Shown here: positions 2,996-55,571 of the stretch, one piece after another
Numbering within the stretch: position 1 is the stretch's first letter
Layout of the letters: each line of letters starts with the position of its first letter
Sequence record: OR791690.1
Source of the DNA: Escherichia phage vB_EcoM_JL1
Strand: one strand, 5' to 3'
DNA: 55,571 bases
Program-made: the position numbers and the translations under genes
The notes under the pieces: model-generated
Seen by the model: only the letters and a program-made list of their open reading frames with translations
Told to the model about the DNA's origin: nothing
Databases searched by the model: none

Positions 2996-3424
2996 ATAGG
3001 ACGTTGGGCTTCTGCTCCCCGGCCCCCTAAAAATAAAATTAATATTGCCACAATTCGAGTCTCGTTAATATCGAACAAATTCGAGTCTCCAATATCGTAA
3101 CAATTTTAGTCTCATTAATTCTGTAGCAATATTGAAAATAAAAAAAAAATTATAAAAAAATTATTTCATAGCCAGACAACTGTTCGAACAAATTTCGGCG
3201 AGATAACTTCTCCGAAGGAGATACAGCTGACCGACCATGAACGAATTACTATCCAGGTACAGTTGACCGACCATGTACCATTTGGTTTTGAACTTTACGC
3301 ATTCCTAATATTACTCTTAATATTGTAGCAATATTGGGAATAAATAAATATTTAATTTACTTGTCTTATTCTAGCTCAAAGAGAAACGACGCTAACGCAT
3401 CGAATCTCTTCTCGCATATAATCG
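2996..3424 (-). promoter_or_regulatory. AT-rich non-coding control region between nrdB and RNAP gene, with direct repeats
   Basis: no ORF; three ~25-bp direct repeats (GAGACTCGAATTTGTTCGATATT-like, minus strand), two copies of CATGGTCGGTCARCTGTAYCT, long A/T tract 3131..3170, repeated CAATATTGCTACA. Confidence 0.6.
3149..3179 (-). promoter_or_regulatory. Candidate sigma70-type promoter upstream of RNAP gene
   Basis: minus strand TTGTCT then about 18-19 nt then TATAAT; spacer slightly long. Confidence 0.3.
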
Positions 3425-43606: not shown

Positions 43607-44157
43607 AGGAACTCTCCAATTTTCGATTCAGTGTTTGTGACTTCTCTTCTCATCTTTTGGCCCAGGAACAGGCCACAGGGTAGCGCAGGAAGGCCGAAAA
43701 TCGGGCCACTGCCTACCGTTTGTGTCAATTCTGGATAACTGCATTGGCGAAGGGTTACTCCCGTTAGGGTGCGATACGCTAATCACATGAGTGTCGTCGC
43801 CTTGCGGCTCAGGCGTGTCACAGAGGCTTTGCAACCCTTCCCAATACATTCACCCAATCCACCCGCTTTGGCATAGCTGGTGGCGCGGTTTTGTGCGGAT
43901 TATGCCACTCTAAGCCCTGTTTGTCCGACTTCCTCAGAGCACCAGCAGCTTGTGGCACAAACCTATTTTCGAATGACTAACATAAGCATGAGGCATAACC
44001 CTCTAATTATTCAGCCCTAACAGCTTGCTTATTTAGTTCCAATTCATCCCAATACATCGCCTATAACAAGTGAATAGCTTTCTGTGGATAAGTATTCCGG
44101 CCCTTTGGCCTATGTTAAAAGATAAATGTATATGATGGAAACATTCCATCGAAAAGA

Positions 44158-44222
44158 ACTTTGTAGAACGAATCGAACGTTCTCACACGTCTTGGTACCA
44201 GACGGACTACCTAGTTACAAAG
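44158..44222 (-). ncRNA. tRNA-like minihelix (D-arm-less)
   Basis: acceptor CTTTGTA/TACAAAG, T-arm GAACG-TTCGATT-CGTTC, one internal hairpin; 65 nt; 20 nt downstream of motif P7. Confidence 0.3.
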
Positions 44223-44241
44223 CTCTTATCTGATGTTGTTT

Positions 44242-44260
44242 CTTCAATTCCAACTAATGT
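44242..44260 (-). promoter_or_regulatory. Phage-promoter-like conserved motif (copy P7)
   Basis: plus cttcaattccaactaatgt. Confidence 0.4.
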
Positions 44261-44271
44261 AATTTTGTGCT

Positions 44272-44362
44272 GTACTCTCTTCCCAAGTTGTCCAGACTTG
44301 GTTGTTTGAGGCTGCGCTTATTGCAGTGGACTTCCTCTACAATTGCTAGTGGAAAAGAGTAC
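44272..44362 (-). ncRNA. Candidate structured small RNA between motifs P8 and P7
   Basis: 12-bp inverted repeat arms (gtactctcttcc / ggaaaagagtac) enclosing ~67 nt with an internal hairpin; no ORF. Confidence 0.25.
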
Positions 44363-44379
44363 AGACAGAATTACACTAA

Positions 44380-44399
44380 TTCAATTCCAATTAATGTTT
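44380..44399 (-). promoter_or_regulatory. Phage-promoter-like conserved motif (copy P8)
   Basis: plus ttcaattccaattaatgttt. Confidence 0.35.
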
Positions 44400-44465
44400 C
44401 AGAATTATTCCAATATTCCAAACAAAAAGAATAATAAGAATAAATTAAATAAATGAAGAAAGTGC

Positions 44466-44495
44466 TTGACACCCATTTGGCGATAAGTGTATAAT
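44466..44495 (+). promoter_or_regulatory. Near-consensus sigma70 promoter on the non-coding strand
   Basis: TTGACA (44466..44471), 18-nt spacer, TATAAT (44490..44495), TG immediately upstream of the -10. Confidence 0.5.
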
Positions 44496-44520
44496 GCCTT
44501 TCTTCCCTAAGTGGTCAGAA

Positions 44521-44539
44521 TCAAATCCCACTAATGTTT
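44521..44539 (-). promoter_or_regulatory. Phage-promoter-like conserved motif (copy P9)
   Basis: plus tcaaatcccactaatgttt. Confidence 0.4.
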
Positions 44540-44606
44540 CAGACTAAAGCCGAAGGCCAATGCGAGCACAAAACCCGCTTGGCACTTCGAAGAAACCCGC
44601 CTGGAA

Positions 44607-44846
44607 CTATAGTGTTTTCCAGTCCGAGTCAAATAGCTCTTTCGGTCGTGTGTAGATAGTAGAAGAATCAATACTTAAGAAAGTATGGTCCCCGTACTTC
44701 TTCACTTCTTGGTAAGCAAACCCATCTACCCAACTTCCGCAGTGAGTTTTAATCTTTGTAGGCCCAAGAATACGATAGAAAGTGTTTCGAGGCTGGTGGT
44801 GAACAATCAATCCAGCCTCAAGTTCAGCAATATTTAAATCACGCAT
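44607..44846 (-). CDS. Hypothetical protein
   Basis: 79 aa. Confidence 0.45.
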   Translation of the reverse strand: MRDLNIAELEAGLIVHHQPRNTFYRILGPTKIKTHCGSWVDGFAYQEVKKYGDHTFLSIDSSTIYTRPKELFDSDWKTL

Positions 44847-45396
44847 TTAAGAATAATATTCCCTCAGAGAAAATGTAGTCACTTCCATAATCTCTGGTGA
44901 TTGCATCCCAATCAATATATGGTGCAAGTCGGTCTGGAATATCCAGTGCCTCACTTTGCTTCAAATATTCTGTAATTGAGTCGCAACGTGTAATGAACAT
45001 ATCGTTCAAATCATCCACAGTGAAAATATCAATCTCACCACTGCGGAATGCTGCAAGAATTACATCCAAATCGGTGTCAACAAGCAGCTCATTGAACTTA
45101 TCATATTTACGAATGCTGAATAGCCCATTGGCAAAGCAAACTTCGGTAACATCTTCTTCATTTGACTCAATTACGTCGTATGTACCGGTTTCTGGATATT
45201 CAATGCCATATTCTTCATGCAAATAATCTCGCATGTTGAAATCATAGTGACGCCAAGACAGGCCATCAATCCACGCATCTACAAATTCAGAATTAGTTTC
45301 GCCTGTGTAGAAACGAACCAATAAGGTTTCATCTCTACGCCAGGACTTAAGCTGTTCTACTGCTTGAGTAATTTGGTTTTCCATCGGATTCTCCAT
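44839..45396 (-). CDS. ArdA-like acidic protein (candidate anti-restriction DNA mimic)
   Basis: 185 aa, strongly acidic; C-terminal YIDWDAITRDYGSDYIFSEGILF resembles ArdA as I recall it. Confidence 0.45.
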   Translation of the reverse strand: MENPMENQITQAVEQLKSWRRDETLLVRFYTGETNSEFVDAWIDGLSWRHYDFNMRDYLHEEYGIEYPETGTYDVIESNEEDVTEVCFANGLFSIRKYDKFNELLVDTDLDVILAAFRSGEIDIFTVDDLNDMFITRCDSITEYLKQSEALDIPDRLAPYIDWDAITRDYGSDYIFSEGILFLNA

Positions 45397-45404
45397 TGAT
45401 GAAG

Positions 45405-45803
45405 TTATGCTGGAAGTTCGAAGTGCGGTGCATCAAGGAACTTAGCCCATTTCACTGGCTTAGTGAAGGTCCGTTCCCATGTTCCACCCCAGCGAATGAC
45501 AACTCCAAGCTCTTCTGCGGCTTTGAACATGTGTTCAGCCACAATTTGGAATCGTTCGAGGTCATTCCAGTCAATCGGATATGGTGCAATGTCTAAAGCA
45601 TTGCCTGACATGTGTCGGCTAACTGAAACTTTGGTTGCACCTTGCTTTAAAAGCTCTTGTTGACGCTCATGAGTGCGCAATCCTTCAAGAACAGTTACGT
45701 CAAACGGCATTGTTTCACATGCACGCTTGAAAACTGCCACCAATGAAGGATTTACGCCTTTGAGTCGGTCAATGGAGCGTTGGCCCAGCTTAACGTTAGA
45801 CAT
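45405..45803 (-). CDS. Peptidase M15-type (L-alanyl-D-glutamate peptidase / VanY-like) peptidoglycan hydrolase
   Basis: SRHMSGNALDIAP zinc-binding motif; 132 aa. Confidence 0.6.
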   Translation of the reverse strand: MSNVKLGQRSIDRLKGVNPSLVAVFKRACETMPFDVTVLEGLRTHERQQELLKQGATKVSVSRHMSGNALDIAPYPIDWNDLERFQIVAEHMFKAAEELGVVIRWGGTWERTFTKPVKWAKFLDAPHFELPA

Positions 45804-46823: not shown

Positions 46824-47741
46824 TTACAGCTTCTTGATAAGCTCTGCGGATTTGCTTGCGGCAGCTTTCATTTCATCGCGTACGGCTTTAACAACTGTTG
46901 CCTTGTCCACACGAATGTTGCAGTTGCCTATTGCAATCTTGCCATCTTCTGTCGGTGCAAGTTGCTGTAAGTCCAGCATTTGCTCTAGCTTTTGCAGAAG
47001 AATACGCTGTGCTTCGATTGCATTTTGAATATTTAAAGTTTCCATTTTTGCTCTTACCTTTCTTGAATAGGTTCCATATAATGTCAGGCGCACTTGCAAA
47101 CCTTTTACACCATCATGGTCAATATTGACTTTATTGTATGGTGAGTATGGATGCTTGTACGTATTTGTAACAGTTGCCCAATTGCCCTTGTACCAAATAA
47201 CATCGCCAACTTCTACATCAGCACCTTTAACATCCTCTTCGTCTGAGAGTGGTTTCACTGCTTCCTCATATGGAAGGAATACTGGCTTTATTTGAGTATC
47301 GAACTTCACCGTAGGAGTTTCCTGTGCTGGTGGCGTATTAACAATGTGGACTATGCGGTTGGGTGAAAAGTCAAAGTATCCTGTTACATGGGTTAATCGA
47401 ACCACATTTTCAGGTATTTCCCCAAGGTCTTTAACTTCCTTTATCTCAAAGAATCTGATTCCGTAAGATAAGATGTTTCCAGGTCGTACTTCATGCGCCA
47501 ATACTGCACGGGTTGTGGTAGGCTTTGTAAAAGATTCTGTAGTGGGACGTTTTTCCAATACTCTGACTATACGGCCCAACTCAAAATTAAAGAACCCGCC
47601 AGAGTGTTGTAGCTGAACTACATCACTAAGTCTGTTGATGTGTACAATCGGATACCCTCTACCATCATGAAATACAACATCGCCAGTTTTAACCAAATTG
47701 GCAGGTAATTCGACAACCTTATTGTCCATGATATTCCTCAC
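46824..47741 (-). CDS. Hypothetical protein with internal repeats
   Basis: 305 aa; repeated GDVVFHDGRGYPIV / GDVIWYKGNWATV-type segments. Confidence 0.5.
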   Translation of the reverse strand: MRNIMDNKVVELPANLVKTGDVVFHDGRGYPIVHINRLSDVVQLQHSGGFFNFELGRIVRVLEKRPTTESFTKPTTTRAVLAHEVRPGNILSYGIRFFEIKEVKDLGEIPENVVRLTHVTGYFDFSPNRIVHIVNTPPAQETPTVKFDTQIKPVFLPYEEAVKPLSDEEDVKGADVEVGDVIWYKGNWATVTNTYKHPYSPYNKVNIDHDGVKGLQVRLTLYGTYSRKVRAKMETLNIQNAIEAQRILLQKLEQMLDLQQLAPTEDGKIAIGNCNIRVDKATVVKAVRDEMKAAASKSAELIKKL

Positions 47742-52070: not shown

Positions 52071-52259
52071 AAATAATGACGCGCCAATCTAATACAATAT
52101 TACCCCGCCAAATGAGATAAATTGCAGCAGATTGGCACGAACATTTGTAGCACTGGAGTTCTGTAGAAGCAGCCAACTTGTTTGTATTTGGCACAAACAG
52201 TTGAATACCTATGTACAGAAAACCGACCATTTAATTAATAAACTAAATGATTTAAATAA

Positions 52260-52520
52260 AGGGTTTTATCCCAATATTGTCACAATATTACATGCGATGA
52301 TAAAGCCTTCGCTTGGCTGGAAGCCAGTATTCATGCGGGTTGCAAGAATATTGGGTTAAATACTACATGCGAATTTGGCACAAATACTGTTACAAAATTA
52401 ACATGCCAGATTGGTAGACGATTGTATCTTCGAGGTGATTAGTCCTCTAACAATTCTGCCACATTCCAACATGCCAATTTGTAGCAATATTTACATGCCA
52501 TACTGCGACAATATTGTCAC
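52260..52520 (-). repeat. Cluster of short repeats in the control region
   Basis: at least five minus-strand copies of YGGCATGTWAATATTG-like motif and two AATATTGTCACAATATT near-palindromes; no ORF. Confidence 0.5.
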
Positions 52521-52992
52521 AATATTTGTTGCTCAAAATCGGGGCGGCAAACGATATTAAATTCGATGCTTTGTCCGACTTCTTCTCTTCTTTCGAATTC
52601 TGATTGAAAGAAAGAAGCATGTCCAAAAGTTCCAATATTACAAAGTTATCTCCCGGCTTGTGGGTGGGCCTTTATAATAGGAGATGGAGCAATATTGTTG
52701 CAATTGAACATGCTTTAGTTGAAGAACAGTTTCGAATGGTAATCCTACTTCACACATGGTTGTTGGAACTTTGTCCGGCCAAAGACAGGGAGTTCAATGA
52801 TTGCCACATCATTACAACACTGTATGTTTAGTTGACATGCTGAAATGTTTCTAGAATGATTTCAACATGACATGCGGAATACTTCTCCGTATTCTGTTAC
52901 TTCACATCCAACTAATGTTACAGGTGGCTACAATATTGAAGCCAGCTCTAAGATTAATTGAAACAAGAAAAGGGAGCCGAAGCTCCCAAATA

Positions 52993-53193
52993 TCAGAACG
53001 GTATCTCTGTATCGAAATAACCAGAATTGTGCAAATATGCATGCAGTAATACATGCGACTCTTGTTTATATTCTGCTAACAACTCTAAGAAGTCTTTAGT
53101 CTCCTCCACTGTAGGACGAGATAAGTTGCTCATGTCACAGGTGTGATGAGGGTTGAAACAGTTTTCGATTTGATTGATTTGCATGGTATTCAT
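52993..53193 (-). CDS. Copy of 417..617 (small protein ending DTEIPF)
   Basis: sequence identity with 417..617. Confidence 0.5.
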   Translation of the reverse strand: MNTMQINQIENCFNPHHTCDMSNLSRPTVEETKDFLELLAEYKQESHVLLHAYLHNSGYFDTEIPF

Positions 53194-53241
53194 TATAAGT
53201 CTCCAAGTTTGTGGTCATCCTTGACCAATTAGTGTTACTGA

Positions 53242-55356
53242 TTATTGACAGAAGTAGTAAGCGTGTTCGCTCATCAGAAGCTCTTCAGTTACGATGTTCT
53301 CATGATACATCTTGATGCCACCAAGTTGCTTAGACAGATTCTCGAATTGATTGTTGGTTACAAAGATTTCAACATATGCTGCACGAATAACTTCCATCAT
53401 ACGTGGAGCATCTGCCAAACAGCAACGGAAACAATCATGGATTGAAGTGAAGCCACGAAGACCAGCTTCTTTAGCTTTAACTGCAACAGTACGAGCAACA
53501 AGTGCATCAATGCCCTGAATGTAGTTAACAACGAAAGTACGCTTGAATTCTTCTTTAGTTGGATTGGATTCACGAATGGTCCAAGGCTTATTCTCCTGAA
53601 TCTGACCAAAGATAACACGAGTTTGGGAGTCAACACGAATGCTGAATGCCTCACAGATTTCACGAGATGGGAAGCAAGGCTTCATTACAACCTGACCATC
53701 AGTGTGACGATATGTGATGTACTCTTTACCAAGTTCAACACAACGGTTGTATGCAGCATCAGCAGCTTTCTCAATGAACATGTTAATCTTAGCACCCAAT
53801 GCGTTATGGATTGCTTCCACACACAGTTCAGCAAATGCCTCAGCTTTCTCCATAGGAATCTGGAGTGCTTCTGTCATGTAGCTGATGAAGTCAGAAGAAC
53901 CAGTCAATGCAGCTTTACCACCACCGTATTGGATAGCCATGTACGGAGTTTTGATAAACTTACGACCAGCTTTCGGATTCAAGAATTCATCCATGATTTC
54001 AGGAGATGGTTTCATTGAAGACTTGTCCAGCAGCTTCAACAGTTCACGAAGACTCAACTGGTATGGGTCAGATGCTTTAGTCTCAGAATCAACCAGACCT
54101 GTTGCACGAGCCATTTCCATATTACCAGCAATGAATGCCAGATATTGAGTACCAGAACATTTAGCATCTAAGCCAAAGCCTACACGAGAATCACATTCAC
54201 CTGTAGTCTCGAACTTGAACCAATCCAGAGCCAGACGAACATAAGTGAATGGCTTGGAAGGACGTTCAGCTTTAGGCATGTTCATCATGCGAGCAAGTGA
54301 ACCAGCTGGATTCTGAGCAACATAAGTTAAACGCTTAGCACTGCACCATTCACCACCAGAAATATCTTCCAGCTCTGCCATAAACATGTTGTATGCAATG
54401 GTAGTAGAACCATCTTCGTTAAACTTCTTAACGATGTTCTCAACATTGTGAGAATACAAGCAACGAGCAAAGTCAGATGATTGTGGGTTAGGACCAGCAC
54501 ATGCTACATGATACAGACGACCACGGTTATCAGCAAAGTAGTCAGAATACAGTGTGTCCTGATTCATCATTGCTACAGCATTGTTCCAAACATGGAGTTC
54601 AGTCTGGATTGCTTCTGGCATCTGCAAGCCACCATAGGTACGTTGTTCAAGCATGGACTGAATGATGCGAACCATCTCAGTCTCCACATGGTACTCAGTA
54701 TCTTGCAGGAATTCGATTGCAGCTTTCAGAGTTTTGGATGGCTTAACTTTGCCACCTTTAACGAAAGGCTTGCGACGAGATTCAGATGTAACACGCTCAG
54801 TGAATGGCACTGCGGTATCTTTGGTTGTAACCAGCTCAACCCATGTGTCAGTTTGTTGGAACGACTTATCTTCGTTCATGGTGATGAAGCCAAAGTGCTT
54901 AGCCAGGCCAATGAGGTTGATAGCTGGGTCAACATAGTGCATTGCTTTCAAATCATTGTTGTAACGGTTGGCATCAGCAATTGAAGCAGAAGCCAGCTCA
55001 ACCATTGCAATTGCAGGAACAACATCATCACGAGTGAATGAGGTCATCATCTTAAAGATTGCAAGAGCAGCAATAGCACAGGTCTGAGGTTGCATGTAGT
55101 TCTGTTTCTCTTTGGCACGATATACCAGAGCAGTGATAGCAGGGACAACGGATTTGATAGTTTGAGTTGAGATAGTTGCCATTTTGCGAGTCTCCAATTT
55201 AGTTTCGGTTTTAGTTTCGGATTGTGTAGCGGAGGTGATTTCATCTACCATCTGGTTGCAACGGTCCATCGTATCGAGCACGTCTTTCCAACCGTGGCCT
55301 TCTTCTTTTAAGCGAGCACCATCAGCAGCCAGTGTACGATATTCTTCATTAGTCAT
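53242..55356 (-). CDS. Copy of T7-like single-subunit RNA polymerase gene
   Basis: identical to 666..2780. Confidence 0.85.
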   Translation of the reverse strand: MTNEEYRTLAADGARLKEEGHGWKDVLDTMDRCNQMVDEITSATQSETKTETKLETRKMATISTQTIKSVVPAITALVYRAKEKQNYMQPQTCAIAALAIFKMMTSFTRDDVVPAIAMVELASASIADANRYNNDLKAMHYVDPAINLIGLAKHFGFITMNEDKSFQQTDTWVELVTTKDTAVPFTERVTSESRRKPFVKGGKVKPSKTLKAAIEFLQDTEYHVETEMVRIIQSMLEQRTYGGLQMPEAIQTELHVWNNAVAMMNQDTLYSDYFADNRGRLYHVACAGPNPQSSDFARCLYSHNVENIVKKFNEDGSTTIAYNMFMAELEDISGGEWCSAKRLTYVAQNPAGSLARMMNMPKAERPSKPFTYVRLALDWFKFETTGECDSRVGFGLDAKCSGTQYLAFIAGNMEMARATGLVDSETKASDPYQLSLRELLKLLDKSSMKPSPEIMDEFLNPKAGRKFIKTPYMAIQYGGGKAALTGSSDFISYMTEALQIPMEKAEAFAELCVEAIHNALGAKINMFIEKAADAAYNRCVELGKEYITYRHTDGQVVMKPCFPSREICEAFSIRVDSQTRVIFGQIQENKPWTIRESNPTKEEFKRTFVVNYIQGIDALVARTVAVKAKEAGLRGFTSIHDCFRCCLADAPRMMEVIRAAYVEIFVTNNQFENLSKQLGGIKMYHENIVTEELLMSEHAYYFCQ

Positions 55357-55571
55357 GATAAAGTCTCCAATTGATTATGATTTAACTGAAACGGATTAGA
55401 CTTGCGTAGCCTATTCATAATCACAACCAACTAATGGTGAGGTGAGCACACTACAACAGCGTACTCTGATTGCCTTTGACCTTGACTTATAAGCGAAGCG
55501 CCTAACTTGGTGTTGTTTGAAAGCCGATAGGCTGTAGGAAAAAGTTGGAGTAGGGACCGTATTTAAGTCCG

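Follow-up and report, generated by a model that had tools for sequence, protein, structure and literature searches.

The strong early sigma70 promoters of coliphages, such as A1-A3 of T7, N25 of T5 and PL and PR of lambda, combine near-consensus hexamers with an A+T-rich upstream region, are read by the unmodified host RNA polymerase and lie on the coding strand, where they serve early genes. T7 is also said to carry A0, a leftward Escherichia coli promoter near its left end, upstream of the early promoters and directed against all genes. In phages 186 and P2, the convergent promoters pR/pL and Pe/Pc have their starts tens of base pairs apart, both members of each pair use the host polymerase to control lysogeny, and the firing or occupancy of one interferes with the other; transcriptional interference of a 'sitting duck' kind has reportedly been described. 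The lambda oop promoter, Po, is a host promoter beside the replication origin, and its product is a discrete 77-nt RNA with its own terminator, which is antisense to the 3' end of the upstream gene and acts on cII mRNA. The primary origin of T7, located about 15% from the left end, consists of the tandem phage promoters phi1.1A and phi1.1B, which are not separated by any gene, and of a 61-bp AT-rich region beyond them; to our knowledge it neither contains nor needs a host promoter.

Chaseviridae are myoviruses that encode a T7-like single-subunit RNA polymerase, and their promoters have not yet been identified (ICTV profile). The window, that is, the whole stretch of 55,571 bp analysed here (Escherichia phage vB_EcoM_JL1, OR791690.1), is a complete phage genome of this family, genus Carltongylesvirus, subfamily Cleopatravirinae, with direct terminal repeats of 2,995 bp (1-2995 and 52577-55571) that are 100% identical. 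All its long ORFs are on the minus strand. The gene of the RNA polymerase (704 aa, Pfam RNA_pol, minus strand) lies entirely within the terminal repeat (53242-55356 and 666-2780), so that there are two copies of it per genome. A stretch of about 1 kb without convincing genes, 43607-44606, divides the block formed by the endolysin, ArdA-like and 79-aa genes from the next one, which holds the replication genes. Along the coding strand, the 79-aa gene ends with its stop codon at 44607, and after it come a hairpin, a phage-promoter motif known as P4, a sigma70 promoter on the other strand, an AT-rich block, a second motif, P5, and a third copy of the motif. Since GenBank usually gives these genomes in the reverse-complement orientation, the sigma70 promoter stands about 11 kb, or 20% of the genome, from the conventional left end. 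The region around it is 94-98% identical to that of the Carltongylesvirus Escherichia phages DE15 and ST32 and has matches in 48 records, from Carltongylesvirus and its relatives. A search for a host origin of the promoter block among 5,426 E. coli genomes gave no match.

The sigma70 promoter reads TTGACA cccatttggcgataagtg TATAAT on the plus strand (44466-44495), exactly as the first-pass annotation had it. Both hexamers, the -35 at 44466..44471 and the -10 at 44490..44495, agree with the consensus in six of six positions, and the -10 is followed by a conserved GC. The spacer of 18 nt (44472..44489) is within 17 +/- 1 bp, and standard sigma70 geometry predicts a transcription start, to within about 1 nt, at 44502, 7 nt past the -10, from which a transcript would head to 44607 and beyond. 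With spacers of 15-19 nt allowed, the two strands of the window hold no other 12/12 sigma70 match; the composition-based chance expectation for such a match, with spacers of 16-18 nt and both strands counted, is 0.047. It is closer to consensus than any site on the phage's own coding strand, where no sigma70 site of the whole genome reaches 10/12. Natural promoters are rarely 12/12, and that perfect hexamers have been selected here speaks for the highest possible affinity for polymerase; a spacer of 18 nt is not the optimum for sigma70. The TG reported earlier beside the -10 does abut TATAAT, at -14/-13, but this is one position out of register for the canonical extended -10 (TGnTATAAT), which was scored as 'no' by the scan, and the dinucleotide is absent in phage Myduc and in the metagenomic contigs L151 and L152. 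The site is very probably a functional promoter for the host housekeeping RNA polymerase (E-sigma70), as judged from its sequence and from the phylogenetic footprint described below. It is left unmarked in the two GenBank records that annotate promoters here, those of phiEcoM-GJ1 and SA91KD, and no mention of it was found in the literature on 4HA13, ST32, PP101, the PYps phages, Tiny and the phages of avian-pathogenic E. coli (APEC).

Antisense promoters of host type are known from phages, and this element belongs with them. It resembles the early promoters of T7, T5 and lambda in its hexamers, in its A+T-rich upstream region and in its predicted use of unmodified host polymerase, but unlike them it opposes all genes and has nothing to express. 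With T7 A0 it shares the phage type, a phage with a single-subunit RNA polymerase, and the orientation against all genes; A0, in contrast, occupies the extreme left end, whereas the promoter of vB_EcoM_JL1 is placed about 20% into the genome, faces a phage-promoter motif and is conserved across genera.

TTGACA-N18-TATAAT occurs on the anti-coding strand, at the syntenic place, in six genus-level lineages of Cleopatravirinae: Carltongylesvirus, Sabourvirus 4HA13, Faunusvirus Faunus, Aeromonas phage phiA050, Suwonvirus PM1 and Myducvirus Myduc. In the other genera the site comes, as in the window, just past an ArdA-like gene, a gene of about 80 aa, a hairpin and the phage motif. Across the six lineages all 12 hexamer columns are invariant, compared with 6 of the 78 columns of spacer and flanks (Fisher P=7e-11). 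The mean pairwise identity between genera is 46% for the spacer and 41-46% for the spacer with 30 nt on each side, and the flanking proteins are 30-36% (ArdA-like) and 30-52% (79-aa) identical between lineages. Among 13 distinct Carltongylesvirus sequences both hexamers are invariant, and the variable columns of the spacer concentrate at its 3' end; two metagenomic Carltongylesvirus contigs, L151 and L152, have a spacer of 17 nt. Invariant hexamers, a spacing held at 17/18 nt and a freely varying spacer sequence indicate selection for recognition by sigma70, and a spacer that drifts in sequence and measures 17 or 18 nt is not what a fixed hairpin or a fixed-geometry operator would show. By these comparisons the promoter is under strong purifying selection. 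The earlier description, a near-consensus sigma70 promoter that opposes all genes and is directed at the 79-aa gene and the ArdA-like one, was correct, and the feature it reported is real and has biological meaning.

It could nevertheless be argued that the match is fortuitous or vestigial, carried along in a non-coding block that serves the minus strand as leader of the P4 transcript. Within Carltongylesvirus, the 165-bp block 44380-44545 is near-invariant as a whole (94-99% identical, even where the flanking 1.8 kb falls to 83-88%), and at that depth the hexamers are indistinguishable from their surroundings. Between genera, however, those surroundings have diverged as described above, and yet the 12 hexamer positions and the 17/18-nt spacing persist; moreover, the probability of an exact match in a syntenic gap of about 500 bp is about 3e-5 per genome. 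A chance origin is thus very unlikely, even though one genus, Loessnervirus, manages with a version that looks dead. In the four genomes of this genus that were examined (Erwinia phage Y2, L020 12040-12075, and L023-L025), the sequence is TTGACA-N8-TATAAT or TAAAAT and the AT-rich repeats are lacking; the 8-nt spacer falls outside the sigma70 range. This spacer is shorter than that of the other genera by one helical turn. Its occurrence implies that the function of the promoter is dispensable or replaceable, and it constitutes a natural 'dead-spacer' variant that could serve as an experimental control. In two Nefertitivirinae genomes, nothing above 10/12 was found in the 18-19 kb after the polymerase gene. 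A pattern scan of IMG/VR for more lineages was unspecific, with Chaseviridae accounting for 2 of 120 matches, and ArdA-guided scans added only L018, truncated at the end of its contig, besides the two contigs with 17-nt spacers.

The spacers of 4HA13, Faunus and phiA050 (L009 1616-1633, L010 1625-1642 and L011 1614-1631) contain inverted repeats of 6-7 bp, namely ACAGAAT..ATTCTGT, ACAGAT..ATCTGT and ACACAT..ATGTGT, with one compensatory G/C swap between Faunus and phiA050. In these three phages the repeat may be an operator or a hairpin. As a general operator it was discarded, for it is weak in the window and missing from PM1 and Myduc, and the 17-nt variants disrupt it.

The phage-promoter motif (5'-CTGAAACATTAGTTGGAWTTGA on the minus strand) has nine matches in the window, where 0.5 would be expected, and every one of them is in the coding orientation; its copies are the 'putative phage promoters' annotated in the phiEcoM-GJ1 GenBank record. 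Two of them, annotated in both phiEcoM-GJ1 and SA91KD, bracket the sigma70 promoter: putative phage promoter 4 (P4, 44521..44543, minus strand) stands face-to-face with it and putative phage promoter 5 (P5, 44381..44403, minus strand) back-to-back. The first-pass annotation had described a back-to-back arrangement, which is true for P5, and had missed the facing P4, together with the conserved AT-rich repeat block and the possibility of an origin; its reading has been supported only in part. Motif searching located a third copy at 44266-44244, also on the minus strand, so that three copies follow one another in tandem within 44244-44543, spaced 137 and 140 nt, with no genes between them. P4 is a probable promoter of the phage RNA polymerase, to judge from its motif. 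It begins 25 nt after the -10 hexamer, which places the predicted start sites of the two promoters about 24 bp apart, and the distance from the -10 to the facing motif is 25-44 nt in all six lineages. At the level of sequence motifs, all six thus have a convergent pair on opposite strands, with starts less than 100 bp apart.

This geometry is that of the pR/pL and Pe/Pc switches, and interference between the two promoters is predicted in vB_EcoM_JL1 as well. There are differences: the predicted contest here would be between the host polymerase and a T7-like phage polymerase, in a strictly lytic phage with no known repressor. The explanation that we favour, although tentatively, is that the promoter works by polymerase occupancy, together with antisense transcription, where the ArdA-like block gives way to the next one. 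A polymerase-sequestering site had been among the roles suggested in the first-pass annotation, and sequestration or occupancy would be consistent with the selection for perfect hexamers. After DNA entry, the host polymerase would bind to this unusually tight site and fire toward the ArdA-like block. A sigma70 open complex spans roughly -55 to +20, and in vB_EcoM_JL1 it would reach the P4 start site; in other genera P4 is as much as 13 bp farther away or 6 bp closer. Whether bound or firing, the host polymerase would occlude P4, and it would also collide head-on with polymerases that leave the ArdA-like block for the replication-gene block, laying an antisense RNA over the 3' end of the former. 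The block would be lifted once the host polymerase has been shut down or has lost the competition with the phage polymerase.

Stray transcription by the host polymerase into the middle and late regions of T7 is reportedly harmful, and this harm would be a reason to have a barrier where the ArdA-like block meets the next one. Other features weigh on the occupancy model from the opposite side. P5, 140 bp further on, would not be blocked, so that the silencing of P4 alone would leave the next block on in the lineages that have P5. In addition, the strong intrinsic terminator that comes after the RNA polymerase block (52987..52972) suggests that little host sense traffic arrives at the junction, which weakens the notion of an insulator against host read-through.

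The main rival explanation is that P4, the sigma70 promoter, the 60-bp AT-rich repeats and P5 together form a T7-like replication origin, in which the host promoter would prime synthesis toward the left end or would help to melt the AT-rich segment by firing divergently from P5. The AT-rich block (44404..44465), directly upstream of the -35, contains TATTCC (44406 and 44414) and GAATAA (44429 and 44438) repeats, whose density reaches its genome maximum there, and the 100-bp window 44354-44453 is the least stable of the genome. Comparable repeat arrays are present in 4HA13, Faunus and phiA050, PM1 has plain A/T tracts, and an AT-rich, UP-like region precedes the promoter in most lineages; the block could function as a DNA-unwinding element, as something like an UP element or as a cluster of sites for protein binding. 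An origin would account for the two or three tandem phage-promoter motifs, 137-140 nt apart without a gene between them, and for an AT-rich segment of about 60 bp downstream of P4, an arrangement as in T7, at a comparable position (15-20% of the genome). The inverted TATTCC/GGAATA pairs and GAATAA repeats, seen in four lineages, resemble iterons or protein-binding sites; the site is unique in the genome; and the conservation of the 165-bp block within the genus exceeds that of the flanking genes. On the other hand, PM1 and Myduc keep the promoter and P4 but have neither the TATTCC repeats nor a nearby P5, and Loessnervirus has lost both the AT-rich block and the normal spacing. The T7 origin works, as far as we know, with no host promoter, whereas the block of vB_EcoM_JL1, where origin function is putative, has one. 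GC skew has no inflection here, although none is expected, given that all genes are on one strand. An origin is consequently regarded as possible but rather unlikely. Besides this block, the least stable DNA of the genome is found at 3066-3170, 3301-3360 and 52230-52289, in the unique region, adjoining both boundaries of the terminal repeats.

What the promoter would produce if it fires was approached from the sequence ahead of it. It had been proposed that it drives a small plus-strand gene, a 31-codon ORF that starts at 44560. This ORF does exist (44560-44655), with GAAGG 3 nt before its ATG, and it lies inside one of 41 codons (44534..44659, plus strand), but the frame or the start is lost within the genus, in GJ1, TH26, 2KOFFS, TH29 and Mangalitsa, through frameshifts and loss of the start, and there is no homologue in other genera. 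Both ORFs were rejected as genes, and a promoter for a small protein is highly improbable. The apparent similarity of a 'PAWNY...QSESN' peptide was likewise dismissed, since it mirrors two conserved sequences, the end of the 79-aa gene and a 3'-UTR motif. Rfam gave no match at gathering thresholds, and at relaxed thresholds only a chance match to U4 (E=1.6); ARAGORN found no tRNAs. A structured plus-strand sRNA was rejected on the negative Rfam result and on alignment folding, which favours the minus strand.

A transcript from about 44502 would run antisense across the P4 leader and the hairpin and through the 79-aa and ArdA-like genes. The 79-aa gene (phrog_2652, 44607..44846, minus strand) is the first on the predicted antisense path; the fold predicted for its protein is a Tudor-like barrel, and no sequence-level link of the protein to CarD or Mfd was found. 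The second is the ArdA-like antirestriction gene (44839..45396, minus strand), whose product has a weak Pfam ArdA match (E=0.0027, below the curated cut-off) and a match to the PHROG anti-restriction protein with E=5e-52. Just upstream of it is an endolysin gene (L-Ala-D-Glu peptidase, 45405-45803, minus strand), which stands among the small genes of the left-hand block, at a distance from the structural genes, and is also on the predicted path. Between 44301 and 46963 no plus-strand terminator-like site was found, the first being at 46963, about 2.4 kb past the promoter. The predicted product is therefore an unstructured antisense RNA that covers the P4 leader and the first two genes on the path, perhaps with the endolysin gene as well.

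It has also been considered that this RNA is itself the functional product, a cis-antisense RNA that would act on the 3' part of the 79-aa/ArdA-like/endolysin mRNA, or on the first ~25 nt of the P4 transcript, and trigger decay. Placed and oriented as it is, the promoter would necessarily give an RNA fully complementary to the 79-aa and ArdA-like genes; it is also strong and conserved, and the convergent transcripts would overlap by about 25-40 nt. The locus resembles lambda oop in having a host promoter whose RNA would be antisense to the 3' end of the upstream gene, and in its overlap with the sense transcript. Unlike oop, it lacks a plus-strand terminator before 46963 and a conserved plus-strand structure; besides, the first 25-44 transcribed nt are unconserved between genera, and the target genes diverge freely. 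An antisense regulatory RNA, as the first-pass annotation had suggested, is conceivable, but the lack of structure and of a terminator within about 2.4 kb makes it unlikely.

The structure that is conserved at this place belongs to the other strand. The hairpin at the 3' end of the ArdA-like gene block (44551..44589, minus strand), annotated as a terminator in SA91KD, is enclosed by a longer stem in which the P4 motif is paired with sequence just past the stop codon of the 79-aa gene. Alignment folding of this region gives -38.7 kcal/mol for the minus strand versus -26.7 for the plus strand, and natural variants in the stem form G-U pairs on the minus strand and A-C mismatches on the plus strand, which assigns the structure to the sense transcript. 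Just past the 79-aa stop codon, at 44571-44608, there are two direct copies of AAACCCGC(T/C)TGG(C/A)ACT, and a GCYTGGAACTA motif is found at the same place across genera (the equivalents in L009, L010 and L021), which pairs with the P4 motif in the minus-strand RNA. This post-stop motif may be a processing site or a terminator for the phage polymerase. Downstream of P5 there is a hairpin module of about 95 nt, with 14-nt arms (44270-44283/44351-44364) that are 93% complementary and an inner hairpin at 44283-44301; it is common only to the window, SA91KD and DE15, and may be a small RNA driven by the phage polymerase. A further hairpin, which brackets the promoter (GAAGAAAG...CTTTCTTC, minus-strand fold), was tried as an attenuator and rejected, since the changes in 2KOFFS and TH26 are uncompensated and the flanks are unpaired in other genera.

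The sigma70 site would be the best-supported transcription signal in Chaseviridae, and it points the 'wrong' way. To specialists it would be surprising that the best host promoter of a phage with a T7-like polymerase faces backwards and is perfect across six genera. If polymerase occupancy is indeed its mode of action, a lytic phage would be using the host polymerase as a positional or timing device set against its own T7-like polymerase; alternatively, the host polymerase would be a component of an origin. In either case it would be used for something other than gene expression. A two-polymerase switch, or an origin that depends on the host polymerase, is a possibility, and would be the more novel reading. 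From a practical point of view, a consensus promoter on cloned fragments of these phages would be strongly active and could hinder their engineering.

Some further sites were noted in the course of this analysis. A second plus-strand sigma70-like site, TTGACA-17-AATGAT (10/12), at 52832-52860 (= 256-284), faces a phage motif (52908-52924) that is 47 nt away and follows the strong intrinsic terminator mentioned above, and in Y2 a CTGTCA-18-TATAAT is found beside another phage motif. A general rule by which host promoters face phage promoters was rejected, because neither site is conserved in other genera or within Loessnervirus; in Y2, 4HA13 and PM1, the stretches examined downstream of the polymerase gene showed no counterpart of the 52832-52860 site. 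Upstream of the RNA polymerase gene (55357-55571) no good sigma70 site was found, and there is a phage-promoter-like motif, CACCATTAGTTGGTTGTGA, at about 55424-55442. The host promoter annotated in phiEcoM-GJ1, TTGACG-18-TATTAT (L030 364-393), is situated just beyond the terminal repeat and, being outside it, would precede only the right-hand copy of the polymerase gene or the concatemer junction. Finally, record PP952070.1, 'Staphylococcus phage Pel53', is 91-97% identical to the window in the promoter region; it is evidently a Carltongylesvirus, and its host label, Staphylococcus hyicus, looks doubtful.
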